DNA from: an uncultured Acidimicrobiia bacterium
GTDB taxonomy: Bacteria; Acidobacteriota; Vicinamibacteria; Vicinamibacterales; SCN-69-37
Direction of reading: 5' to 3'
Assembly: GCA_966252305.1 (NCBI GenBank)
Contig: CBINOO010000002.1
Coordinates: 20,089-84,088 of the forward strand
DNA: 64,000 nt
Position numbers and translations under genes: made by a program. This document shows, one piece after another, positions 12,877 through 22,312 of the stretch; the stretch's first letter is position 1, and the number at the start of each line of letters is the position of its first letter. Below the pieces are notes generated by a model. That model worked only from the letters and a program-made list of their open reading frames with translations. It was not told the DNA's origin and did no database searches.

Positions 12877-12890
12877 TTGCTCCGGCGCAA
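12877..12890. promoter_or_regulatory. FNR/CRP-superfamily box TTGCTCCGGCGCAA upstream of the RIC gene
   Basis: TTGNN-N4-NNCAA architecture. The centre is 42.5 bp upstream of ATG 12926, which itself sits 6 nt after TAGCGT. Confidence 0.6.
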
Positions 12891-12925: not shown

Positions 12926-13630
12926 ATGCAGATTACGACTGACACCCACGTTGCCGATCTTGCCACCACGTTTCCAGGCACGATCCGCGTTTTTCAGCAC
13001 TACGGCCTCGACTTCTGCTGCGGCGGCAAGCGGCCGTTGGGCGATGTCTGCCGCCAAAACGGCCTCAACGTCGACGAGCTCATCAAGGTCCTGACGGATT
13101 CGCTGACTGAAGTTCGAGACGACGTGGATTGGTCGACGCGTCCCGTGTCCGACCTGACCGCGCATATCCTTCACCGATTCCACCAACCGCTTCGGGAGGA
13201 GTTGCCGCGCCTGCGCGCCATGCTCGACAAGGTCATCAGCCGCCATGGGGACACCTTCGGCACGGTGCTGGAGCCACTATCGCGGACCTTCGACGACTTC
13301 CACGCCGACCTGCTGAGCCACATGCAGAAGGAGGAGGTCATCCTGTTCCCGGCCATCGACGCCAGGGATCGCGGGGACCACGACCAGCCGCTGCCGTGCG
13401 GAACGATTGCCGCCCCCGTGGCCGTGATGGAGATGGAGCATGAACATGCGGGGGAGGCGCTGCAGACCATGCGGCGTCTGACCGACGGATTCACGCCGCC
13501 AGAGTGGGCGTGTCCCACCTTCCGCGGCCTGTACCACGGGCTCGCGGAACTCGAGCGCGAGATGCACCTGCACGTGCACCTCGAGAACAACGTGCTCTTC
13601 CCACGAGCACTGGCCGCGCCGCAGGGCTAA
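12926..13630 (+). CDS. ytfE: Iron-sulfur cluster repair di-iron protein (RIC/YtfE/ScdA family)
   Basis: N-terminal FQHYGLDFCCGGKRPL (ScdA_N), followed by hemerythrin-like H..E / H...H motifs (HRFHQPLREE, MEMEHEHAGE, HLHVHLENNVLFP). Confidence 0.9.
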   Translation: MQITTDTHVADLATTFPGTIRVFQHYGLDFCCGGKRPLGDVCRQNGLNVDELIKVLTDSLTEVRDDVDWSTRPVSDLTAHILHRFHQPLREELPRLRAMLDKVISRHGDTFGTVLEPLSRTFDDFHADLLSHMQKEEVILFPAIDARDRGDHDQPLPCGTIAAPVAVMEMEHEHAGEALQTMRRLTDGFTPPEWACPTFRGLYHGLAELEREMHLHVHLENNVLFPRALAAPQG

Positions 13631-14484
13631 CGCCCTGCGGCCTGCCGCACGATGTCGAGCGCCTGCTCGACCGTCCAGTCATTCCCTCGCAGCACTGTGC
13701 GAACTACCGCGTCAGGACCAATGACGGCGGTGGCCAGCGAATGGTCGATACCAACGGCCGATGGGCGGGCAACCACAGCGAACGCGGCCGTGATTGCCTC
13801 GAGTTCGCTGGTGTCGCCCGTCACGAGCGTGAATGGGGCATCCGACACACCGTGGGCCTCGGCGTACGCCGCAAGAATTTCCGGCGTATCAAATGCGGGA
13901 TCCAGCGTGATGGCCAGCGCCCGGACGCGATCGCGCAGTGAGGCCTCCGACGCCGTTCGCGTCAGCAGGTGTTTCAGGCGCGTCATCATCGCCGGGCAGT
14001 AGTCGGGCAAAGGACACCTGGTGAAGATGAACGTCGCCACCGTGACGACGCCTGAAAGATCGGCCTCGGTGAACGGCCTTCCTGCCTGATCGACGAGCCT
14101 GAACGGCCCGACACGGTCGCCTTCTCGGAGTCGCGCGCTGCCGACGGCTCCCCCTGACGTGATCCGCCTGAGTCCGACCGGGTCCTTGCCGGTGACGCGG
14201 ATGCTCTCAATGGTCGTTCGTTCCCCCACCCGCAATGTAAATGACACCCGGTCCCCCGCGACCAGACCTTCGATGTCCGCTGGAGACGTGGCCGAGAACG
14301 GCATGGTCATGGCCGGCATGAATCCGGGAATGTCGTCGTGTGCGACCTGAAGTGTGACGCCTTCGGGCGCCGCGATGACCAGACCCGTGACGGCAAAACG
14401 ACGCGCCCCATCACCTGTGCCGCAGCCGGCGGCGACCGTGGCAACGAGGAGAACGCAACAGGCGGGAATCAGCCGAATACGCAT
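13627..14484 (-). CDS. CusF-like copper-binding domain fused to SCO1/SenC thioredoxin-like domain, lipoprotein
   Basis: Start taken at ATG 14484 (MRIRLIPACCVLLVATVAAGCG lipobox). VAHDDIPGFMPAMTMPF matches the CusF H..M.M site. FIFTRCPLPDYCP matches the SCO family Cys pair. Confidence 0.8.
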   Translation of the reverse strand: MRIRLIPACCVLLVATVAAGCGTGDGARRFAVTGLVIAAPEGVTLQVAHDDIPGFMPAMTMPFSATSPADIEGLVAGDRVSFTLRVGERTTIESIRVTGKDPVGLRRITSGGAVGSARLREGDRVGPFRLVDQAGRPFTEADLSGVVTVATFIFTRCPLPDYCPAMMTRLKHLLTRTASEASLRDRVRALAITLDPAFDTPEILAAYAEAHGVSDAPFTLVTGDTSELEAITAAFAVVARPSAVGIDHSLATAVIGPDAVVRTVLRGNDWTVEQALDIVRQAAGR

Positions 14485-14490
14485 GAGCCG

Positions 14491-14496
14491 AGCATA
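14491..14496 (-). promoter_or_regulatory. -10-like TATGCT, 6 nt before ATG 14484
   Basis: Minus strand: tggcTATGCTcggctcATG, with the palindromic box at -41.5. Confidence 0.6.
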
Positions 14497-14518
14497 GCCA
14501 CGGATTTCTTTCCGGAAG

Positions 14519-14532
14519 TTGCGCTGGCGCAA
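14519..14532. promoter_or_regulatory. Perfect palindromic FNR/NnrR-type box TTGCGCTGGCGCAA between the divergent SCO and azurin-nosZ genes
   Basis: The centre is 41.5 bp from the A of minus-strand ATG 14484. It would also sit at -41.5 of a plus-strand transcription start near 14567, just before the GGAGG of the azurin gene. Confidence 0.65.
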
Positions 14533-14580
14533 TGACGCCCGCGGTCGGACCCGGCAGACTGCCGTCATGGAGGTTCGATC

Positions 14581-15087
14581 GTGAAGAGATTCCTGGCAGT
14601 TGTCTCCGTGGTTGCCGTGGCGGTGGGCGTCAGTGGGTGCGGGCAGCCGTCAAGCGACGCTGCGCCGCCTGCGCCGGTGGCGGCCGCCGCGCCGGTCGTG
14701 CATGACGGGCGACCCGTGGCCATCACGGCCAACGACACCATCAAGTTCTCGGTGACCGAGATCACCGCGACGCCCGGTGAGCGCCTCAGCGTCACGCTGA
14801 CCAATGTCGGCAGCATGCCGAAGTTCTCGATGGGGCACAACTTCGTGCTCCTGGCCGGCGGCACCGACACCGCAGCATTCCTGACGGCCGCTGCCTCGGC
14901 GCCAACCACCGACTACGTTCCGGCTGCCATGGCCAACGTCGTGCTGGCCTCCACCTCGCTGCTGGGACCTGGCGAGAAGGCGACGGCCACGTTCACGGCA
15001 CCGACCACGCCCGGGCGATACGAGTTCATCTGCTCGTTCCCGGGACATTTCCAGGTGGGCATGCGTGGCGTGCTCATCGTGCAGTAA
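14581..15087 (+). CDS. Azurin-type cupredoxin, lipoprotein with Ala/Pro-rich linker
   Basis: GGAGG at 14569-14573 precedes GTG 14581. Lipobox GVSGC. Linker APPAPVAAAAPVV. Copper ligands in MGHNFVL and CSFPGHFQVGM. Confidence 0.85.
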   Translation: MKRFLAVVSVVAVAVGVSGCGQPSSDAAPPAPVAAAAPVVHDGRPVAITANDTIKFSVTEITATPGERLSVTLTNVGSMPKFSMGHNFVLLAGGTDTAAFLTAAASAPTTDYVPAAMANVVLASTSLLGPGEKATATFTAPTTPGRYEFICSFPGHFQVGMRGVLIVQ

Positions 15088-15102
15088 GTGACTCCGGAGG
15101 TC

Positions 15103-16971
15103 ATGATGAGAATACGAACAGTGCTGGTCGGAGCGGCGGCAGTCGCTCTTGTGTCGTTCCTGATCGTGTCGCCAGGGTGCGGCAGCGTGGAGCCGACGGT
15201 CTCGGCCAATCTCGCTGAGCGCTCGTTCGTGGCGCCGGGCGATCTCGACGAGTACTACCTCTTCTACTCAGGCGGCCATTCCGGTCAGGTCTATGTTGCG
15301 GGCTTGCCGTCGATGCGCCACATCTCGACGATCCCCGTATTTGCGCCATACCCGGCCACCGGGTACGGCTTCGACGAAGAAAGCCGGCAGATGCTCGGCG
15401 ACTTCCGCTGGGGTGATGTGCACCACCCGGCGTTGTCACAGACAGACGGCAAGTACGACGGCCGCTGGCTCTTCGTCAACGACAACGCCAACTCGCGTGT
15501 CGCCCGGGTAGACCTCCGCGATTTCAAGACCAAACAGATCTTCGGACCGATCCCCAACTCCGCCGGCACCCACGGGTCGTCGTTCGTGACCGAAAACTCC
15601 GAATACGTCCTCGTCGCCACCCGTTTCTCGATTCCCCTGCCGAAGGGCCGCTACGCACCGACGACAAGTTATCAGCAGGAGTACAGCGGGATGGTCAGTG
15701 GCCTGGCCGTCGATCCGAAGACGGGTTCGTTGTCGGTGGGCTGGCAGATCAAAACGCCGCCGTTCAACTGGGATCTCGGATCAACAGGCAAGGGGCCAAG
15801 TTCCGGCTGGGCGTTCTGGACTTCCTACAACACGGAAATGGCGCACGAGAAGCTGGAAGCGACATCGACCCAGGGCGAACGCGACCTTGCGGCGTTCGTG
15901 AACTGGCGCGCGGCTGCACAGGCAGTGCAGGAAGGCAAGGCGACGATGGTCGACGGCGTGCCGATGATTGATCCCGCCGCCGTTCCCGGCCTGATGTACT
16001 TCGTGCCCGTGCCGAAGTCACCACACGGCATCGACACCGATCCGACCGGTCGCTGGATTTCCACGGGCGGCAAGCTGGCACCGGTGGTCACGGTCTTCGA
16101 CTTCGAGAAGGTGAAGGCGGCCATCGACAAGCGCGACTTCGACGGCGAAATGCGCGGCGTGCCAATTCTCCGCTACGAGTCGATCGTCGAAGGCGAGGTT
16201 CCCGTGGGGCTCGGCCCGCTCCACACGCAGTACGACGGCAAGGGCAACGCCTACACCTCCCTGTTCATTGAATCGGTCGTGACGAAGTTCCGTCTCCCAC
16301 CGTGGACGCCGGAGGAGAAGGCCGACCTGAACAAGGTCGTGGTCGAGAAAATTCCTGTCCATCTGAGCATCGGCCATCTGGTCGTGGGTGGCAGCGACAC
16401 CCGTGAGCCGTACGGCAAGTACCTGGTCGCCATGAACAAGTTGTCGAAGGGACGGCATGTCAGCGTCGGACCGTCGCAGCCCGAGTCGAGCCAGCTCATC
16501 GACATCTCCGGCGAGAAGATGGTGATGCTGGCGGAGGCCTACACCGAACCGGAGCCGCACTTCGCGCAGATCCTGAAGGCCGACCTGATTCAGCCGATCG
16601 AGGTGTACCCGAGGGCCGAGAACACGCACCCGAACGCCATCTGGGACGAGTCGCAGGCGTCGGTCACGCGCAACGGCAACAAGGTGGAAGTGAAGATGAT
16701 CGGGATCCGCAGCCGCTTCATTCCAGACACGATTGATGTGCGCCAGGGCGACGAGGTCACGATCCACGTGACCAACATCGAGCAGACGACCGACATGCTG
16801 CACGGGCTCGGCATCACGGGCTACGACATCAACGTCGTCATCGACCCCGGGGAAACCAAGACCGTGAAGTTCATCGCCGACAAACCCGGCGTCTTCCCCT
16901 TCTATTGCACCAACTTCTGTTCGGCGCTGCATCAGGAGATGCAGGGCTATCTCGGCGTGCGGCCTCGGTAA
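15103..16971 (+). CDS. nosZ: Nitrous-oxide reductase NosZ, Sec-type (clade II-like)
   Basis: C-terminal CuA motif CTNFCSALHQEM (C-x3-C-x3-H-x2-M). GDVHHP His motif in the propeller part. N-terminus MMRIRTVLVGAAAVALV lacks a twin-arginine. GGAGG at 15096-15100. Confidence 0.95.
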   Translation: MMRIRTVLVGAAAVALVSFLIVSPGCGSVEPTVSANLAERSFVAPGDLDEYYLFYSGGHSGQVYVAGLPSMRHISTIPVFAPYPATGYGFDEESRQMLGDFRWGDVHHPALSQTDGKYDGRWLFVNDNANSRVARVDLRDFKTKQIFGPIPNSAGTHGSSFVTENSEYVLVATRFSIPLPKGRYAPTTSYQQEYSGMVSGLAVDPKTGSLSVGWQIKTPPFNWDLGSTGKGPSSGWAFWTSYNTEMAHEKLEATSTQGERDLAAFVNWRAAAQAVQEGKATMVDGVPMIDPAAVPGLMYFVPVPKSPHGIDTDPTGRWISTGGKLAPVVTVFDFEKVKAAIDKRDFDGEMRGVPILRYESIVEGEVPVGLGPLHTQYDGKGNAYTSLFIESVVTKFRLPPWTPEEKADLNKVVVEKIPVHLSIGHLVVGGSDTREPYGKYLVAMNKLSKGRHVSVGPSQPESSQLIDISGEKMVMLAEAYTEPEPHFAQILKADLIQPIEVYPRAENTHPNAIWDESQASVTRNGNKVEVKMIGIRSRFIPDTIDVRQGDEVTIHVTNIEQTTDMLHGLGITGYDINVVIDPGETKTVKFIADKPGVFPFYCTNFCSALHQEMQGYLGVRPR

Positions 16972-16995
16972 CCGCTGACGCCAACGGAGACACCC

Positions 16996-17610
16996 ATGAC
17001 CCGCGAGGCCACAGTTCATGCCTTCCTGCAGCGGCCGCTGACGACGGCCTCGCGGGTCTTGTTGCTGGCCGGCATCGGTTTTCTCATCGCCGGTGCGTTG
17101 CTGCCGCTGTGGCGCATCCATCTGGTTGCGCCTCAGTACCGCGAAGGCCTGTCGATCGACATGTACGCCTACAAGCTTGTGGGCGGCAACGGTGGGCAGG
17201 ACCTCGCGGAAATCAACACACTGAACCACTACATCGGCATGCACGGTATCGAACCGTCCGATTTCGTCGAGATGAAGTGGATTCCCTTTGCCATCGGCGT
17301 GTTCGTGCTGGTCACGATGCGAGCCATCGTCATTGGTCGCGTTGGCAGTCTGGTGGACCTGGCCGTGATGTTCCTGTACTTCGGCGCGTTTTCATTCGCC
17401 AGCTTCGGCTACCGGCTCTATTCGTATGGCCACCACCTCGATCCGAAGGCGCCGATGGCGGTCGAGCCCTTCATGCCAATCCTGATAGGGCGACAGCAGA
17501 TCGCGAACTTCGTGCAGACGAGTCTCCCGCTGGCGGGGACGTTCTGCATGGCCGTGTTTCTGGGCCTCGTGTTCGCCGCGATCTGGCGCGCGCACTCGTC
17601 GGAGGTGTGA
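16996..17610 (+). CDS. Four-TM membrane protein of the kind found only in clade II nos clusters (NosB-like)
   Basis: 204 aa with 4 hydrophobic helices. Position between nosZ and nosD. The assignment is by context and from memory of nosB, not by motif. Confidence 0.6.
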   Translation: MTREATVHAFLQRPLTTASRVLLLAGIGFLIAGALLPLWRIHLVAPQYREGLSIDMYAYKLVGGNGGQDLAEINTLNHYIGMHGIEPSDFVEMKWIPFAIGVFVLVTMRAIVIGRVGSLVDLAVMFLYFGAFSFASFGYRLYSYGHHLDPKAPMAVEPFMPILIGRQQIANFVQTSLPLAGTFCMAVFLGLVFAAIWRAHSSEV

Positions 17611-17614
17611 CGCG

Positions 17615-18928
17615 ATGACGCGACGCGCGAGTGTGATCGCCGCGGCAGCCGCGGCGTTGTGCACGATGGTCGCGGGTGCTGGCGCCGGCAGCGCCAGCAT
17701 GGGCGATGCGGACTGGCTGCGCGCGCAGCTGGCCGATGGCGGGCCCCTGGTCATCGACGTGCCGGCCGGCGTGTATGCCGGGCCATGGGTCATCGCCAGG
17801 CCGGTTCACCTGCGTGGGCATGGCCGAGCGAGGTTGCAGGGTGACGGCAAGACGCATGTCGTGGCGATCACCGCCGCCGACGTCATTGTCGAGGGCTTTG
17901 ACATCCGCGGCTCCGGGATGGACCTGACGAAGGACCATGCGGCGATTCACATCTCCGCGCCACGGGTGACGGCGCGCAACAACGTCATCGCCGAGAGCCT
18001 GCACGGCGTGTACGTGAAGGGCGCAGACCACGTCACCATTGAGGGCAACTCCATCGAGGGGCAACAGACCACCTGGGAGGCCGTGGACCCCGACTCACTC
18101 ACCCCAGTGCCGTCTGGCGGTGAGATGTGTGAGGTGTCGCTGGATCAGAACTGGCGCGGCAACGGGATCCATCTCTGGAATTCGAGTGGGCACATGGTGC
18201 GCGGCAATCACATCAGCCACACCCGGGACGGAATCTACTTCTCCTTCGTGTCGCGGTCCAGGGTGGAGCACAACGAGATCGAGGATGCCCGGTACGGACT
18301 GCACTACATGTATTCGGACGACAACCAGTTTGAAGGCAACGTCTTCAGGAAGAGCGCTGCGGGAGCCGCGCTCATGTTTTCCAAGGGGTTGCGCCTCCGG
18401 GAGAACCGCTTCGAAGCGAATCGCAGCCAACGCGCATACGGACTGCTGTTGCAGTCGGTCGACTTTTCCACGATCGAGCGCAATCACATCGTCGGCAACA
18501 CGATGGGGATGTTTCTCGAAGGCAGCACCGGCAACCGTGTCATCGACAACAAGATTGCCGGCAACCACGTCGGCATTCGCGTCTCGGACAGCTCGGATCA
18601 GAACGTGATCGTGGGCAATGCCTTCCTGGGCAACCTCCACGGTGTCGAGACGGTCGGTCGACAGCGGACCAACAGGTGGACCGAAGACGGGCGCGGCAAC
18701 TACTGGGAGGGGGCCTTGCGCCTGGATCTCGACGCGAACGGCATTGCAGACGTTCCCCACCGGGAGCTGGATGTGCTCGGGGGCCTTCGCCGGGACCTTC
18801 CCCAGGTCGCGCTCCTGGTCGGCAGCCCTGGGGAGCGCCTGCTTCGCTTCGTGCACGCGCGCATTCCCCTCGAGCGCCGATCCGGCATCACCGATACGGC
18901 GCCACTCATGACGCGGAGTTCACGATGA
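17615..18928 (+). CDS. nosD: NosD, periplasmic copper-binding parallel beta-helix protein
   Basis: Repeated xxGNxIxxN beta-helix turns (GNSIEG, RGNHISHTRDGIYF, HNEIEDARYGLHYMYS, GNVFRKS, ENRFEAN, RNHIVGN, DNKIAGNHVGI). Confidence 0.9.
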   Translation: MTRRASVIAAAAAALCTMVAGAGAGSASMGDADWLRAQLADGGPLVIDVPAGVYAGPWVIARPVHLRGHGRARLQGDGKTHVVAITAADVIVEGFDIRGSGMDLTKDHAAIHISAPRVTARNNVIAESLHGVYVKGADHVTIEGNSIEGQQTTWEAVDPDSLTPVPSGGEMCEVSLDQNWRGNGIHLWNSSGHMVRGNHISHTRDGIYFSFVSRSRVEHNEIEDARYGLHYMYSDDNQFEGNVFRKSAAGAALMFSKGLRLRENRFEANRSQRAYGLLLQSVDFSTIERNHIVGNTMGMFLEGSTGNRVIDNKIAGNHVGIRVSDSSDQNVIVGNAFLGNLHGVETVGRQRTNRWTEDGRGNYWEGALRLDLDANGIADVPHRELDVLGGLRRDLPQVALLVGSPGERLLRFVHARIPLERRSGITDTAPLMTRSSR

Positions 18929-19587
18929 TTGCTGCTCACGGCCTTTCGAAGTCATATGGCGGCAGGCAAGTGCTGTCGGACTTGTCGTTTGAGGTCTCGC
19001 CGGGCGGCGTCACCTTGCTTGTTGGCGCCAATGGATCCGGAAAATCGACGACCATGCGCGTGCTGGCGGGCCTGGCGGAGACCAGCGCCGGCCGAGTGGC
19101 CATGGCCGGATCCGCGTCGTACCTCCCGCAGTCGCCGCGTTTTCATCCGCGTCTGACGGTGACGCAAACACTGCAGTTCTACGCATCTCTACGGGCCCTG
19201 GCGTCATCACGGCTCGACGACGTAATGCATCGTTGGGGATTGGAGTCCTGGCGTGACGTGTCGTCTGCCGCACTATCAGGAGGAGTGCGCCAGCGCCTGG
19301 CGCTCGCCGTGTTCTCGCTGCCGGACGCGGACGTGCTGCTCCTTGATGAGCCTGGACTCAGTCTCGATCCTGACTGGCGGCGTACGCTGCAGGATCAATT
19401 GCGCACCGCCGCGGCGGACGGCCGAACCGTGCTGGTCGCCACACATCTGCTGGGCGAGTGGGAGGGGCACGCAGACCGGTGTCTGTTGCTCGAGCGCGGT
19501 CGGATTACCCGCGAACTCGCGCCGCATCGCCTGCGCGACGCGTTTCCCTTCTCCGCAGGTCGCACATCACAGGTCGCTGTCTCATGA
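18925..19587 (+). CDS. nosF: NosF, ABC ATPase
   Basis: ATGA overlap with nosD. Walker A GANGSGKST, signature LSGGVRQRLALA, Walker B LLLDEP. Confidence 0.9.
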   Translation: MIAAHGLSKSYGGRQVLSDLSFEVSPGGVTLLVGANGSGKSTTMRVLAGLAETSAGRVAMAGSASYLPQSPRFHPRLTVTQTLQFYASLRALASSRLDDVMHRWGLESWRDVSSAALSGGVRQRLALAVFSLPDADVLLLDEPGLSLDPDWRRTLQDQLRTAAADGRTVLVATHLLGEWEGHADRCLLLERGRITRELAPHRLRDAFPFSAGRTSQVAVS

Positions 19588-20372
19588 CCCCTCGAACAAT
19601 CGTCATGGCCGTGTTCCATCGAGAGCTGATGGCGCAGCGCCTCAGCAGGTTCCTGCAGACGCACCTGGCGTTTGCGGTGACAGCCGGTGCACTGCCGTTG
19701 CTGGCCGACGGTCAGGTGGCGGCGTCGGCGCCGTGGTGGATGCTGCAGGCCGTGCTGTACGGGCTATCGCTGTCGTCGATGTTGCTTGGGCTCAGCTCCG
19801 CTCAGAGTGAGCGGGAGGAGTGGGCAATGATCTTCTCGCAGCCTATGGCTCGTTGGGCCTGGTTGACCGGCAAGGTCGCGGCGATTGCCGTCATTCTGAT
19901 GCCGGCGGCATTTCTGCTGGTGTTGCCGACGGCGCTGGTCTCCGGCCTCACCACGCGCCTGGCAGCGGTCATGCTCGCAGCCGGCGGTGTCACGCTGGTG
20001 ATGGCCCTGGTCGGCCTCGCCCTCGGCTGTGCCATTCGCGATGGCGTACGCGGTGTGCTCGCGTGCCTGAGCCTCTGGTTCATCCTGTTGTTTGGTGTGG
20101 ATCTGATGTCGCTCGGCGTGGCGTCACTCAGCGTGAGCCGGCAATGGCCGGCGCTGTTTGTCGCGCCGATGATGCTCAATCCGCTCGATGCGCTGCGTGT
20201 CGCGTTTCTGTTTGCGCTGGAACAGGCCGCGCCCCCGGCGCTCGACACCCAGGGACTGTCGGCGTGGTGGATGCGCCACAGTGTTGCCTGGGGAGTGACG
20301 ATCGTTCTGGTCTGGCTGTCGGTCGCGTTTGCAGGCGCGCTGGTGACCCTGCGCCGGGAGGTCGAGGCCTGA
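19584..20372 (+). CDS. nosY: NosY, ABC-2 type permease
   Basis: ATGA overlap with nosF. Six hydrophobic helices, about 262 aa. Confidence 0.8.
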   Translation: MTPRTIVMAVFHRELMAQRLSRFLQTHLAFAVTAGALPLLADGQVAASAPWWMLQAVLYGLSLSSMLLGLSSAQSEREEWAMIFSQPMARWAWLTGKVAAIAVILMPAAFLLVLPTALVSGLTTRLAAVMLAAGGVTLVMALVGLALGCAIRDGVRGVLACLSLWFILLFGVDLMSLGVASLSVSRQWPALFVAPMMLNPLDALRVAFLFALEQAAPPALDTQGLSAWWMRHSVAWGVTIVLVWLSVAFAGALVTLRREVEA

Positions 20373-20377
20373 CGGCT

Positions 20378-21073
20378 TCAGTCGCGGTCGTGTCCGCCCG
20401 CGAGCTGAGCGAGGTGCCGGGGTTGGCGGATCAGCAGTTGTTTGCGGGTGGAACGCAGCAGGCCGTCTTCCTCCCATTGCGCCAGCGTGCGGCTCGCCGT
20501 GTACAGTGTCGTTCCCGCCAGTTCCGCCAGCTCCTGGCGGGTCAATGCATGCGCGATCAGAATGCCTTCGTCTGTGGGCCGGCCGATCTGCCGGGCCAGT
20601 CGCACAAGCGTGAGTGCGAGCCGTTCGCCCACGCGCAGCGTGGTCATCTCGCGCACCCGCGTGAGCGCGTCGGTCATGTGCAGGGTCATCTCCCGCATGA
20701 TGTTCGCGCGTACCGTGGGAAACGTGTCGAGGACGTCGCGCAGGGCCCGGCTGTCCCACGCGCAGCCCTCGGTGGGTTCGATCGTGATGGCGCTGACTGG
20801 ATACGGCACGCGGTCCACCGCGACGACGCCGCCGAACACGCCGCCCGGGCCGACGTAACGCACGATCAGTTCTTCGCCGTCGCGGTTGGATTGCAGCAAC
20901 TTGAGCATGCCGCTGGTGATGGCGTAGATGGCGGTCGCGGGTTCCCCCTGGCGAGCGACCCAGTGCCCGCGCTTGAAAGAGACACGATGCCCTTTCGCGA
21001 CACAGGCGTGACGGTCAGACTCGGAGAGTCCTTCGAGCAATCGACACTCTCGCAGCTCCATCCAGACCCGCAT
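20378..21073 (-). CDS. Crp/Fnr-family transcription regulator without N-terminal Cys cluster (Dnr/NnrR-like)
   Basis: cNMP-binding-like beta-roll (RQGEPATAIYAITSGMLKL..ELIVRYVGPGGVFG) and a C-terminal HTH LTRQELAELAGTTLYTASRTLAQWEEDGLL. ATG 21061 is an alternative start. Confidence 0.85.
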   Translation of the reverse strand: MRVWMELRECRLLEGLSESDRHACVAKGHRVSFKRGHWVARQGEPATAIYAITSGMLKLLQSNRDGEELIVRYVGPGGVFGGVVAVDRVPYPVSAITIEPTEGCAWDSRALRDVLDTFPTVRANIMREMTLHMTDALTRVREMTTLRVGERLALTLVRLARQIGRPTDEGILIAHALTRQELAELAGTTLYTASRTLAQWEEDGLLRSTRKQLLIRQPRHLAQLAGGHDRD

Positions 21074-21094
21074 TGTGGCACATCGACGTTGCCC

Positions 21095-22312
21095 ATGTGG
21101 TACCTCGGCACCGCACACGCCGGCCTCGGACTCGCGCTGGCGTTGTTGATCGTGTGGCCCGAACTGCCGGGTGGGTACTTCTATCACCCCCGCATGGTGG
21201 CGCTCGTCCATCTGCTGACACTGGGGTGGCTGACCAGCTCCATCGTCGGAGCGTTCTACATCGTCGGGCCATTGGCGTTCCGGATCTCGATGGTGGTGAC
21301 TCGTCTGGATTGGTGGTTGGCGGCGGCGTTTGCCATCGGCGCATCCGGCGTGATTGCGCACGCCTGGATTGGCAGTTATGACGGCCTTGCGTGGTCGGCA
21401 CCACTGGTGCTGCTGCCTGTCCTGTGTATCGGACGTGCGGCGATTCGTGGATACGTGGCACGTCCCGCACTGCGCCCGGCGCTCCTGCACGTCGTCCTTG
21501 CGTGCGGCAACTTGCTCGCAGCAGCGGCTTACGGTGCGGTCATCGCCTGGGATCGTCGCAGGGGTGGCATTGCGATATCGCCGTTGTCAATGGCGCTGGC
21601 GCACGCGCATCTGGCCTCCATCGGATGGGTGCTGATGATGATCGTGGGGTGCGCGTACCGTCTGGTCCCGATGTTCGTGCCGTGCCGGCCCGCGCAGGGC
21701 CGCGTGCCGATTCTTGGCGCAGTGCTTCTGCAGAGCGGTGCGCTGATGCTGGCCGTCGCGCACACGGCAGGGCTATCGGTGTTGCCTGGCGCGCTCATCG
21801 CTGTCGCCGGTATCGTCGTCAGCACCGTGATGGTTCTGGGGGGCCTCCGCCATCGATTGCCACGCCCGCCGGCGCTGCCGTCGACCGACTGGTCACTGCG
21901 ACAGGTCGCCACGGCAGCGGCGTGGATGGCCGTGGCCGTGGGCTGCGGCGTATGGATCTCCGCATCGGGGATGACGAGGCCCGCGCTCGCGTGGGTGTAT
22001 GGCGTCGCCGCGTTGCTCGGAGCCTTCGGTCAGATGGTGGCAGGCATGGCTGGTCGCCTCGTGCCCATGTGGGTGTGGTTTCGCGCGCAGGCCGTGACGG
22101 GTACGGTGCCGGCGTTCAGCGCGCACGACGTACCGTCGGCCGGCTGGGCACGCACCATCTGGGTGCTGTGGCTGGCCGGGGTACCGCTACTGGCGGCCGG
22201 GCTGGCGCTTGTGGAACCCGCGATAGTGCGCCTCGGCGCCGGCGTCATGTTCGCCGCAGTCGCGGCCGGCGCGTATGACCTGCGTCGGATGATGCTGGTG
22301 GCGCGCCTATAG
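21095..22312 (+). CDS. 12-TM integral membrane protein, family not recognised (NnrS-like is only a contextual guess)
   Basis: Only the C-terminal 405 aa of ORF 19820..22312 has membrane-protein composition. Recurrent H..(L)GW....IVG..Y..VP..F motif in helices 2 and 6, with a weaker copy in helix 10. Confidence 0.7.
   Translation: MWYLGTAHAGLGLALALLIVWPELPGGYFYHPRMVALVHLLTLGWLTSSIVGAFYIVGPLAFRISMVVTRLDWWLAAAFAIGASGVIAHAWIGSYDGLAWSAPLVLLPVLCIGRAAIRGYVARPALRPALLHVVLACGNLLAAAAYGAVIAWDRRRGGIAISPLSMALAHAHLASIGWVLMMIVGCAYRLVPMFVPCRPAQGRVPILGAVLLQSGALMLAVAHTAGLSVLPGALIAVAGIVVSTVMVLGGLRHRLPRPPALPSTDWSLRQVATAAAWMAVAVGCGVWISASGMTRPALAWVYGVAALLGAFGQMVAGMAGRLVPMWVWFRAQAVTGTVPAFSAHDVPSAGWARTIWVLWLAGVPLLAAGLALVEPAIVRLGAGVMFAAVAAGAYDLRRMMLVARL

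Follow-up and report, generated by a model that had tools for sequence, protein, structure and literature searches.

An SCO-azurin-type nos gene cluster lacking nosL in an uncultured soil acidobacterium

Results

Genes of the nos cluster

The window, by which we mean the whole 64,000-nucleotide stretch of DNA that was analyzed, belongs to a 97.5%-complete genome (4.5 Mb, 199 contigs) of an uncultured Vicinamibacteria-like soil acidobacterium. Within it, a CusF-Sco lipoprotein gene is divergent from genes for an azurin-like lipoprotein, clade II NosZ, NosB, and NosDFY, with genes for RIC, a Crp/Fnr regulator, and a 12-transmembrane-helix (12-TM) protein as flanks (Table 1). The analysis confirmed that this gene content is real, and the described open reading frames (ORFs) are all intact, with their metal ligands kept.

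Table 1. Genes and sites of the nos cluster and its flanks (positions in the window)
Feature	Position	Strand	Description
FNR-type box	12877..12890		TTGCTCCGGCGCAA; 5′ of RIC; one base off the nos box
RIC/YtfE-type di-iron Fe-S repair protein	12926..13630	+	TIGR03652, 232 bits (cutoff, 204.7); Hemerythrin and ScdA_N domains
CusF-Sco lipoprotein	13627..14484	-	CusF-like Cu(I) domain fused to Sco1/SenC thioredoxin-fold domain
FNR/Dnr-type box	14519..14532		Perfect palindrome TTGCGCTGGCGCAA in the SCO-azurin intergenic region
Azurin-like lipoprotein	14581..15087	+	Lipid-anchored type 1 cupredoxin (azurin/auracyanin-like), Ala/Pro linker
NosZ	15103..16971	+	Clade II (Sec-type) nitrous oxide reductase; ORF open from GTG 15088
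NosB	16996..17610	+	Membrane protein with four hydrophobic helices (4-TM), restricted to nos clusters of clade II
NosD	17615..18928	+	Periplasmic beta-helix maturation protein; TIGR04247, 379 bits (cutoff, 300); PF05048, 165.8 bits
NosF	18925..19587	+	ABC ATPase; PF00005, 85.5 bits; syntenic homologs in related loci
NosY	19584..20372	+	ABC-2 type permease; weak PF12679 match, 18.7 bits
Crp/Fnr-family regulator (Dnr/NnrR-like)	20378..21073	-	PF00027, 65.4 bits; PF13545, 50.2 bits
12-TM protein	21095..22312	+	Heme-copper oxidase subunit I fold; divergent from the regulator gene

NosZ scored 836.4 bits with the model of Sec-dependent NosZ (TIGR04246; cutoff, 625), whereas the Tat-type model (TIGR04244) reached 486 bits, below its cutoff of 625. 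The N terminus (MMRIRTVLVGAAAVALVSFLIVSPGC) lacks an RR-x-F motif; its hydrophobic stretch is closed by a lipobox-like Cys (…LIVSPGC, followed by G) that ends the signal peptide and is kept in relatives, and NosZ is probably a lipoprotein. The likely start is ATG 15103, with GGAGG 3 nt upstream. Alignment to solved NosZ chains (5e-113) paired the CuZ/CuA histidines and the CuA ligands, and in comparison with 9f8x every His/Cys/Met ligand position was matched (HH, HG, PHG, LHT, GH, PH, LHG, and the CuA motif CTNFCSALHQEM). With ligand identities as in Pseudomonas stutzeri NosZ, the protein has the full CuA set (H, C-x3-C-x3-H-x2-M) as well as the seven histidines of CuZ. The initial annotation had assigned NosZ to clade II from its CuA motif and non-Tat N terminus, and this assignment held.

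NosB matched no Pfam or NCBIfam model. The predicted 4-TM NosB-like gene after nosZ was nevertheless verified by its four helices and by the motifs LNHYIGM and YGH, which have been named as NosB motifs (PMC9697520). Of the 80 closest NosZ loci, which served as the comparison set, 76 have a homolog (41 to 78% identity) directly 3′ of nosZ. NosY has syntenic homologs (31 to 62% identity) in the loci that carry the SCO-azurin module described below. The genes from nosB to nosY had been described as joined by ATGA overlaps; this is true of nosD/nosF and nosF/nosY only, whereas nosB and nosD are 4 nt apart.

The cluster thus has nosB directly 3′ of nosZ, has nosDFY, and lacks nosR and nosX, as in other clade II clusters, but the linked c-type cytochrome(s) and NosL that are usual in described clusters were found neither in the window nor, for NosL, in the genome. 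NosL was searched for in the 97.5%-complete genome with Pfam PF05573, a custom HMM (best E = 3), and a custom profile, none of which found it, and no FMN_bind match that would indicate NosR was obtained there. ApbE is encoded twice, on C11 and on C1, two contigs that differ from that of nos. No real CXXCH ORF was found in the window, and no genes for NosC-type cytochrome c or NosG/H at the cluster; the genome contains 19 cytochrome c domain matches (PF13442), none of them on the window's contig. The claimed lack of nosL, nosR, nosX, nosG/H, and cytochrome c genes was therefore upheld for the window and, for nosL and nosR, extended to the genome. The genome also has possible electron sources, namely a gene for cytochrome b and, adjoining cytochrome c and COX1 genes, one for an NrfD-like protein.

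The CusF-Sco and azurin-like lipoproteins

We placed the start of CusF-Sco at ATG 14484, so that its signal peptide reads MRIRLIPACCVLLVATVAAGC; the frame itself stays open to 14568. The protein matched PF11604 (43.7 bits; cutoff, 27) and PF02630 (85.5 bits; cutoff, 22.8) as well as ScoI in the PDB (4e-11). The CusF domain has an H-x9-M-x-M site in HDDIPGFMPAMTM, which is kept in 34 of 34 nos-linked copies; where Escherichia coli CusF has a Trp, these proteins have F, Y, or L. The Sco domain has the conserved His (DHS). The proposed fusion, divergently transcribed from a shared box, was thus recovered, but its Sco domain does not contain the copper-binding motif CxxxC: the actual motif is Cx5C (CPLPDYC), which in the alignment has a 2-residue insertion compared to CP--DVCP of Bradyrhizobium japonicum ScoI. 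Cx5C is kept across the CusF-Sco family, whether nos linked or not.

CusF-Sco fusions as such are widespread and mostly unlinked to nos, and the CusF domain is kept in housekeeping paralogs equally as in every nos-linked copy. Since the genome has six other SCO-family matches and PCuAC, the nos-linked copy is not the general one. An SCO tree placed 34 of 34 nos-adjacent copies inside a single clade of 39 members (SH-aLRT, 99), as expected from the suggested association of the fusion with clade II nosZ. Three of the five other members lie beside a second azurin-nosZ cluster (L143 to L145); the remaining two are the copy of locus L020 itself and that of L146, close to where a 6-kb contig ends. 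The housekeeping SCO paralogs of the module genomes fall in other clades. Judged by its sequence relationships, the CusF-Sco at this locus is a nos-dedicated paralog.

The cupredoxin gene ends 15 nt 5′ of nosZ and has the same orientation. Its product matched PF00127 (plastocyanin/azurin family) with 48.8 bits (cutoff, 21.2), and among proteins of solved structure it is closest to an auracyanin-like blue copper protein (PDB 6kol; 7.7e-20), Laz (3ay2; 1.5e-17), and auracyanin B (1.6e-15). The type 1 (blue) copper ligands, MGHN followed by C-SFPG-H-FQVG-M (GHN, C-x4-H-x4-M), coincide in the alignments with the ligand residues of 6kol, Laz, and azurins, and the lipobox VSGC is kept in all relatives. 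NF051440 was matched weakly (34.9 bits). The strict azurin equivalog TIGR02695 gave 74.9 bits, below its cutoff of 105.1. Of the lipid-anchored azurin that had been annotated, the lipobox, linker, ligands, and co-orientation with nosZ stood, but not the strict azurin assignment. For clade I NosZ, small cupredoxins (pseudoazurin/azurin) are generally accepted as electron donors. The cupredoxin described here resembles Laz of Neisseria and the auracyanins of Chloroflexus and Roseiflexus in being a type 1 cupredoxin that is predicted to be lipid tethered via a flexible Ala/Pro linker; it differs from these proteins and from the clade I donors in scoring below the azurin equivalog cutoff and in being encoded inside a clade II nos operon.

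Regulatory sites and flanking genes

The SCO-azurin intergenic region contains the identical 14-mer in 9 acidobacterial loci and TTGATN4ATCAA in most verrucomicrobial loci, and TTG-N8-CAA was present between the two genes in 22 of 26 divergent loci. This conservation of an FNR-type box argues for coregulation of SCO and azurin-nosZ; over the whole window, matches to the FNR-type pattern were not above chance (4 found versus 4.2 expected). The Crp/Fnr regulator, homologs of which (40 to 64% identity) adjoin nosY in acidobacterial loci, is a candidate for binding the TTGCG-N4-CGCAA boxes. The RIC gene is convergent with the SCO gene, has homologs near nos in several related loci, and probably shares an NO/anoxia regulon with nos.

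The AF2 model of the 12-TM protein (pLDDT, 85.7; pTM, 0.87) was matched by Foldseek to cbb3 CcoN and to ba3 and aa3 subunit I (query-normalized TM, 0.63 to 0.73). Only three histidines are invariant (H39, H170, and H172), and Pfam COX1 matched three of eight homologs (best, 9e-12). Homologs are encoded near 10 module loci.

Distribution of the SCO-azurin module among related nos loci

Azurin and/or SCO genes were found in 34 of the 80 loci, namely those with a NosZ identity of at least 62%, and the other 46 had neither. Both genes occur in 31 loci, divergently in 26 and with SCO placed or oriented differently in 5. The module is common to Vicinamibacteria, Opitutaceae, Chthoniobacterales, Verrucomicrobiales, and one Planctomycetota metagenome-assembled genome (MAG), which together represent three phyla, and some genomes have two copies. 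Phylogenetic placement showed that the NosZ proteins of module loci form essentially one clade.

In 39 of the 46 nonmodule loci, an ORF for a cytochrome c with 4 to 5 CXXCH motifs was located at positions -1300 to -100 from nosZ, the slot that is held by azurin in the module; no module locus has such an ORF in this slot. NosL was detected by Pfam in 0 of 31 module genomes versus 29 of 34 others, and by Pfam plus a more sensitive profile in 0 of 33 module genomes (our genome and 32 others) versus 31 of 34 comparison genomes, counts that are not independent because the module genomes represent essentially one NosZ lineage. Of the genomes that were negative by Pfam, 7 turned out to encode NosL, and the sensitive profile detected it in every one of them. 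Profile searches and gene order together show the distribution of the module to be complementary to that of NosL and of the multiheme cytochrome c gene 5′ of nosZ; with a single NosZ lineage, this complementarity may go back to one event in the past. NosL and a nos-linked SCO are both missing from two Gemmatimonadales genomes and one unclassified genome, so NosL can be lost without replacement by SCO.

Discussion

With SCO-family and azurin genes immediately 5′ of nosZ, the locus belongs to an SCO-azurin type of cluster that is not new. A 2026 study (ISME J, PMC13122619) described SCO and azurin genes 5′ of nosZ in two strains, Luteitalea pratensis KCTC52215 and Opitutus terrae PB90-1. As in the window, these clusters have SCO-family and azurin genes upstream of a clade II nosZ followed by nosDFY, and the phyla agree: in a Luteitalea MAG (locus L031), the gene order is the same and NosZ is 78% identical to ours. 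L. pratensis reduces N2O, the reduction is inhibited by acetylene and is not coupled to exponential growth, and the authors likewise suggested copper delivery or electron transfer for SCO/azurin (PMC13122619). The organism described here represents a different, uncultured lineage, its nearest NosZ being 89% identical. The published description does not include the CusF domain, the Cx5C motif, the absence of NosL from the genome, the exchange of position with the multiheme cytochrome, or the monophyly of nos-linked SCO; new here are the complementarity with NosL and cytochrome, a clade of dedicated SCO proteins, and the Cx5C motif of this clade.

Canonical clade II clusters are represented by Wolinella succinogenes (nosZ-B-D-G-C1-C2-H-F-Y-L) and by the arrangement cytochrome c-nosZ-nosB-nosD-nosF-nosL-nosY (loci L038 to L081). 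The window shares with them a Sec-type NosZ, the position of nosB, nosDFY, and the lack of nosR and nosX, but lacks NosC-type cytochrome c, NosG/H, and NosL and has azurin in the cytochrome slot and a divergent CusF-Sco. Its Sco domain keeps the Sco1/SenC fold and the Cys, Cys, and His positions of Paracoccus denitrificans Sco/SenC2 and B. japonicum ScoI (PDB 4wbj). Unlike these proteins, it is part of a CusF-fused lipoprotein with Cx5C, encoded in a nos locus of a genome without NosL.

The cytochrome slot swap and the NosL counts support, at the level of sequence comparison, the interpretation of the initial annotation, in which azurin is the proposed electron donor and CusF-Sco the proposed factor for copper delivery or CuA maturation in NosL's place. 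Of the outcomes that would have spoken against this interpretation, neither nosL or nosR genes elsewhere in the genome nor a lack of association between the CusF-Sco fusion and nosZ was observed. A less likely account is that SCO is confined to CuA, like Sco/SenC2 in Paracoccus and in oxidases, that NosL was simply lost and not replaced, and that NosDFY fills CuZ from unchaperoned periplasmic copper. In P. denitrificans, senC2 and pcuC mutants show less N2O reduction at low Cu, NosL serves CuZ only, and a nosL mutant has no defect at sufficient copper (reviewed in PMC7558416), so NosL may simply be dispensable; the NosL-less clade II clusters of Gemmatimonadales without linked SCO point the same way. 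This account is opposed by the completeness of the NosL complementarity and by the presence of a CusF-type Cu(I) hand-over domain in every nos-linked copy, although housekeeping paralogs have it equally.

The departure of Cx5C from the copper-binding CxxxC is a point against copper delivery by SCO, and the 19 cytochrome c domains matched on other contigs, as possible electron donors, count against azurin in this role. Both would fit an SCO that acts as a TlpA-like thiol-disulfide reductase or as a copper buffer protecting NosZ maturation, with the cupredoxin serving another enzyme or copper handling and NosZ receiving its electrons from a cytochrome c whose gene lies elsewhere. The PDB matches show the thioredoxin fold of Sco proteins, and CopI-type cupredoxins, to which the weak NF051440 match may relate, act in copper resistance. 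We nevertheless regard this explanation as improbable: the Sco His and the CusF His/Met site are kept, the type 1 ligand set is intact, and the co-oriented azurin gene directly precedes nosZ in the slot that holds cytochrome c in sister clusters. No RNA run containing this DNA was listed, which speaks neither for nor against expression of the cluster. That these genes are a remnant, decaying or silent, with no active NosZ, as the absence of NosL, NosR, and linked cytochromes might suggest, is very hard to reconcile with intact ORFs and ligands, with retention of the module in 34 loci of three phyla (twice in some genomes), and with N2O reduction by L. pratensis, which has the same genes 5′ of nosZ (PMC13122619).

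We therefore favor, with some reserve, a functional clade II nitrous oxide reductase cluster of the SCO-azurin subtype that would work as follows. Under anoxia or NO, the Crp/Fnr regulator would activate both promoters. The lipid-anchored cupredoxin would take electrons from a housekeeping quinol oxidoreductase, candidates being a cytochrome b/c complex on contig C31 and an ACIII-like cluster on C3, and would reduce CuA of membrane-tethered NosZ, thereby doing the job of cytochrome c. NosDFY and NosB would act as in other clade II systems. The CusF-Sco lipoprotein would capture periplasmic Cu(I) at its His/Met site and pass it via the Sco Cys/His site to apo-NosZ, most likely to CuA, and it might in addition supply NosD with copper for CuZ, as NosL does in other systems.

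Gene content of the nos locus

An ORF listing and family scans recovered all elements of the Sec-type nos locus that the initial annotation had proposed, namely, genes for an azurin, NosZ, a NosB-like protein, NosDFY, and a CusF-SCO fusion. What that annotation described is a genuine and conserved nos subtype, and the observation was careful and correct, although several of its details could be refined. The likely NosZ start is the ATG at 15103, which has GGAGG in front of it. The Cys motif of the Sco domain is CPLPDYC (Cx5C), 2 residues longer than the CxxxC of ScoI. ATGA overlaps join nosD to nosF and nosF to nosY but were found at no other joint of the cluster. The putative azurin is a cupredoxin (azurin below), but it scored 74.9 with the azurin equivalog model against a cutoff of 105.1; among solved structures, 6kol (a blue copper protein of the auracyanin kind), Laz, and auracyanins are its closest relatives, with classical azurins ranking behind. 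The Tat-type model gave 486 bits on the window's NosZ, which is under its cutoff. Solved NosZ chains align to this protein end to end (5e-113), and the CuZ and CuA ligand positions hold His, Cys, and Met. The two motifs of the 4-TM protein are those of NosB (PMC9697520). The signal peptide of the CusF-Sco protein is MRIRLIPACCVLLVATVAAGC, and its ORF stays open as far as 14568.

Features of the nos locus (window positions) and further SCO-family genes of the host genome (contig:positions; C numbers are contigs of this genome, C2 being that of the window)
Feature	Position	Strand	Evidence or context
RIC/YtfE gene	12926-13630		Flank; TIGR03652, 232 bits
CusF-Sco lipoprotein	13627-14484	-	CusF_Ec PF11604, 43.7 bits, then SCO1/SenC PF02630, 85.5 bits
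Lipoprotein cupredoxin	14581-15087	+	PF00127, 48.8 bits; divergent from CusF-Sco gene
NosZ	15088/15103-16971	+	TIGR04246 (Sec-dependent NosZ), 836 bits (cutoff, 625)
NosB, 4-TM	16996-17610	+	No family match; motifs LNHYIGM and YGH
NosD	17615-18928	+	TIGR04247, 379 bits
NosF	18925-19587	+	Follows nosD
NosY	19584-20372	+	Follows nosF
Crp/Fnr regulator	20378-21073	-	Flank of nos cluster
12-TM protein	21095-22312	+	Flank, beside Crp/Fnr regulator
Second full-length CusF-Sco paralogue	C103:13016-13825		
Canonical Sco	C184:294-698		Beside PCuAC
SCO-family match	C3:19982-20386		Inside ACIII/caa3-like cluster
SCO-family match	C2:88628-89008		4.5 kb past the window's end

Conservation of the module among NosZ relatives

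The best 80 NosZ loci of a one-genome-per-species GTDB set were surveyed with 10-kb flanks by querying with the window's proteins. The closest loci belong to acidobacterial MAGs (89% down to 74% NosZ identity), including Vicinamibacteraceae and a Luteitalea MAG, and are followed in the ranking by Opitutaceae and other Verrucomicrobiota. An azurin and/or CusF-Sco gene adjoined nosZ in 34 of the 80 loci (module loci; NosZ identity to the window, 62 to 89%), and neither gene was found in the other 46 (57 to 68%). Both genes were present in 31 of the 34 module loci. The two were divergent in 26 of these, with the SCO gene about 1.5 kb and the azurin gene about 0.5 kb upstream of nosZ, while the SCO gene lay elsewhere or was otherwise oriented in 5. 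The module is incomplete in L029, whose contig stops 1.2 kb upstream of nosZ; L013 has azurin without SCO at the locus, and L025 has SCO without azurin. The L013 genome carries a nos-clade SCO toward one end of a separate contig of 6 kb (L146). Three verrucomicrobial genomes contained two complete SCO-azurin-nosZ(BDFY) copies on different contigs (L143/G418, L144/G416, and L145/G412).

In a FastTree phylogeny of NosZ, 35 module sequences formed one group, joined by a single non-module sequence (L054), at a node whose own support was weak (0.13) and whose next node outward had a support of 1.0. The acidobacterial NosZ proteins were nested beside those of Opitutaceae. The closest locus, L003 (BTVE01000003.1, Acidimicrobiia bacterium AMX-MBFR-57; NosZ identity, 89%), has an identical gene order, including the Crp and 12-TM genes. 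Its Acidimicrobiia label is probably a mislabel or a binning error, because all of its tree neighbors are Acidobacteriota. Small shares of DNA runs from soil, rhizosphere, landfill, and sludge matched the locus, and no RNA run was among the matches listed.

Complementarity with NosL and the upstream cytochrome c

The host genome (4.5 Mb, 199 contigs, 97.5% complete) gave no match to the NosL family PF05573. A custom HMM, made from the NosL proteins of related nos loci (20 sequences) and run against every ORF of the genome with filters off, likewise found none (best E = 3), nor did the same alignment used as a profile in a genome search. FMN_bind, the hallmark of NosR, had zero matches. The absence of nosL and nosR noted for the window thus extended to the genome in these searches. 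CXXCH strings occur in the window only in noncoding frames. The genome has two ApbE copies, both outside contig C2, and 19 cytochrome c domain matches, none of them on C2. Contig C31 carries a cytochrome b gene that adjoins, or is fused to, cytochrome c, and on contig C3 an NrfD-like gene adjoins cytochrome c and COX1 genes in an ACIII-caa3-like arrangement. Four homologues of haem-copper oxidase subunit I were present, and no nirK was found over the cutoff in this genome.

By Pfam, NosL was found in 0 of 31 module genomes versus 29 of 34 genomes of non-module loci. The Pfam whole-genome search has false negatives, having missed 7 genomes that were later recovered by the custom profile; a search with PF00127 also missed the window's own azurin. 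The NosL test was therefore repeated with the custom HMM and profile. The HMM located NosL between nosF and nosY in five Pfam-negative acidobacterial loci (L167 to L171, from G288, G391, G059, G357, and G003), and PF05573 thus underdetects acidobacterial NosL. NosL of these five loci sits within extended open frames, so a fusion with its neighbor is possible. With the sensitive profile, all 7 recoverable negatives turned positive, and 33 of 33 module genomes stayed negative. The non-module genomes still without NosL were those of two Gemmatimonadales, that of L054, and one 81%-complete MAG.

A similar division was seen upstream of nosZ. Of the 46 non-module loci, 39 have an ORF containing four or five CXXCH motifs immediately ahead of the gene (about -1300 to -100); no module locus has one, and azurin occupies the slot there. 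As judged from these comparisons, the module on the one hand and NosL and the cytochrome c gene on the other are strictly complementary in their distribution. The counts cannot be treated as independent, since essentially a single NosZ lineage makes up the module genomes. Two Chthoniobacterales module loci, L027 (-3108 to -2221 from nosZ) and L032 (-2634 to -1909), have an ORF with 5 to 7 CXXCH motifs just past the SCO gene, on the strand opposite to it, so that a multihaem cytochrome is still encoded close to the module in some carriers. The two Gemmatimonadales MAGs (L037 and L056) have a one-CXXCH ORF upstream of nosZ and neither azurin nor a pentahaem cytochrome, and their genomes yielded no NosL with either profile and no nos-linked SCO. 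NosL can thus be absent without this SCO, and the layout looks like a third way to organize a clade II cluster.

A nos-linked clade of CusF-Sco proteins

In a sample of 401 Acidobacteriota genomes (tallies include the unpublished G024 and G152, on which no individual claim depends), 189 had a CusF-Sco match, full-length in more than 100, and only 32 had a clade II NosZ. Apart from the window's own genome, just three of the sample had the match beside nosZ. The idea that the fusion itself is nos specific was accordingly rejected, as most of the genomes with full-length homologues lack nosZ. The initial annotation would have been refuted by a lack of phylogenetic association between the fusion and nosZ, but an association was found. 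A tree of 94 sequences, comprising nos-linked copies, same-genome paralogues, and copies from nosZ-less genomes (quick IQ-TREE search, support by SH-aLRT only), placed all 34 nos-linked copies within one clade of 39 (SH-aLRT, 99), apart from the housekeeping paralogues. The five remaining members comprise three that adjoin a second azurin-nosZ cluster, a duplicate retrieval of the L020 copy, and one encoded close to where a 6-kb contig ends. H-x9-M-x-M and Cx5C are kept across all CusF-Sco proteins in the tree, nos linked or not; the Cys motif of verrucomicrobial housekeeping copies is CP[IV]ATMC.

The host genome has seven SCO-family matches in total. A role of the CusF domain as a stand-in for missing PCuAC was dismissed, since PCuAC and a canonical Sco are both encoded. 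No link between a CusF-like domain and Sco was found in the papers searched.

Membrane anchoring and a shared regulatory box

A lipobox and a linker of low complexity are features of all module azurins. Among the NosZ N termini compared (L003 to L082), 31 of the 34 from module loci end their signal peptide with a Cys in a context resembling a lipobox, and a Cys at the same position is also common among non-module clade II loci. These NosZ proteins are therefore more likely lipoproteins than soluble enzymes of the periplasm. The window's own NosZ lipobox (VSPGC; region considered, 15103-15180) is noncanonical at position -2. Donor, enzyme, and chaperone are thus all predicted to be membrane tethered.

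The perfect palindrome TTGCGCTGGCGCAA lies at 14519-14532, between the divergent SCO and azurin genes. Nine acidobacterial loci have the identical 14-mer at the same position although their SCO proteins share just 45 to 58% identity, and verrucomicrobial loci have TTGATN4ATCAA in the same intergenic region. Overall, 22 of 26 divergent SCO/azurin regions contain a TTG-N8-CAA palindrome, which we roughly estimate to occur by chance in fewer than 1 in 10 regions of about 300 bp. TTGCG-N4-CGCAA is not above chance in the window as a whole, so that only the cross-locus position of the box is informative. A copy with one mismatch lies ahead of the RIC gene. The predicted boxes fit a scheme in which the neighboring Crp/Fnr regulator controls RIC, SCO, and azurin-nosZ.

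The 12-TM protein (405 amino acids) gave no match in a PDB sequence search. Its structural model (pLDDT, 85.7) resembles haem-copper oxidase subunit I, i.e., cbb3 CcoN and ba3/aa3 subunit I (TM, 0.63 to 0.73). The only invariant His residues are H39 and H170/H172 of an AHAH motif; with just three, the protein lacks a full haem and CuB ligand set. In 10 loci, spread over both phyla, a homologue lies close to the module.

Proposed function and implications

The initial proposal that azurin serves as electron donor and CusF-SCO as copper-delivery factor is supported by every comparative test available, and the module is conserved and probably coregulated. The cupredoxin would carry electrons from a housekeeping quinol oxidoreductase (a cytochrome bc complex or ACIII) to CuA, and CusF-Sco would supply Cu(I) to NosZ. 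CuA is the likely Sco target because Paracoccus senC2 and pcuC mutants provide a Sco precedent and NosL is required only for CuZ, at low copper (PMC7558416); CuZ may be a further recipient, by way of NosD. We consider it possible but rather unlikely that N2O reduction here is all copper, with the lipid-anchored cupredoxin fully replacing c-type cytochromes as donor to lipid-anchored NosZ, the dedicated CusF-Sco(Cx5C) acting as a NosL analogue that delivers Cu(I) to NosD/NosZ to fill CuA as well as CuZ, and the whole module having been transferred between Verrucomicrobiota and Acidobacteriota.

The SCO-azurin architecture, the subtype, and the functional idea are already published (PMC13122619) and are hence not new. 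That study, on Luteitalea pratensis and Opitutus terrae, also reported acetylene-sensitive N2O reduction by L. pratensis, and according to it no other acidobacterial nosZ is as prevalent in the world's soils as that of Vicinamibacteria. New here are the CusF domain with Cx5C, the dedicated SCO clade, the strict complementarity with NosL and the multihaem cytochrome, and the shared FNR-type box.

CuA metallation of NosZ is still poorly defined in the field, and a Sco gene fixed in the nos operon makes the question directly testable; L. pratensis and O. terrae are culturable carriers in which the sharpened hypothesis can be addressed. Given the prevalence of Vicinamibacteria nosZ, the way in which the enzyme is supplied with electrons and twelve copper ions matters for N2O sinks in soil. 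Should the SCO-azurin module operate as proposed, these bacteria would reduce N2O without haem c and without NosL, and a different copper chaperone could shift the sensitivity of the process to copper supply, pH, and oxygen.
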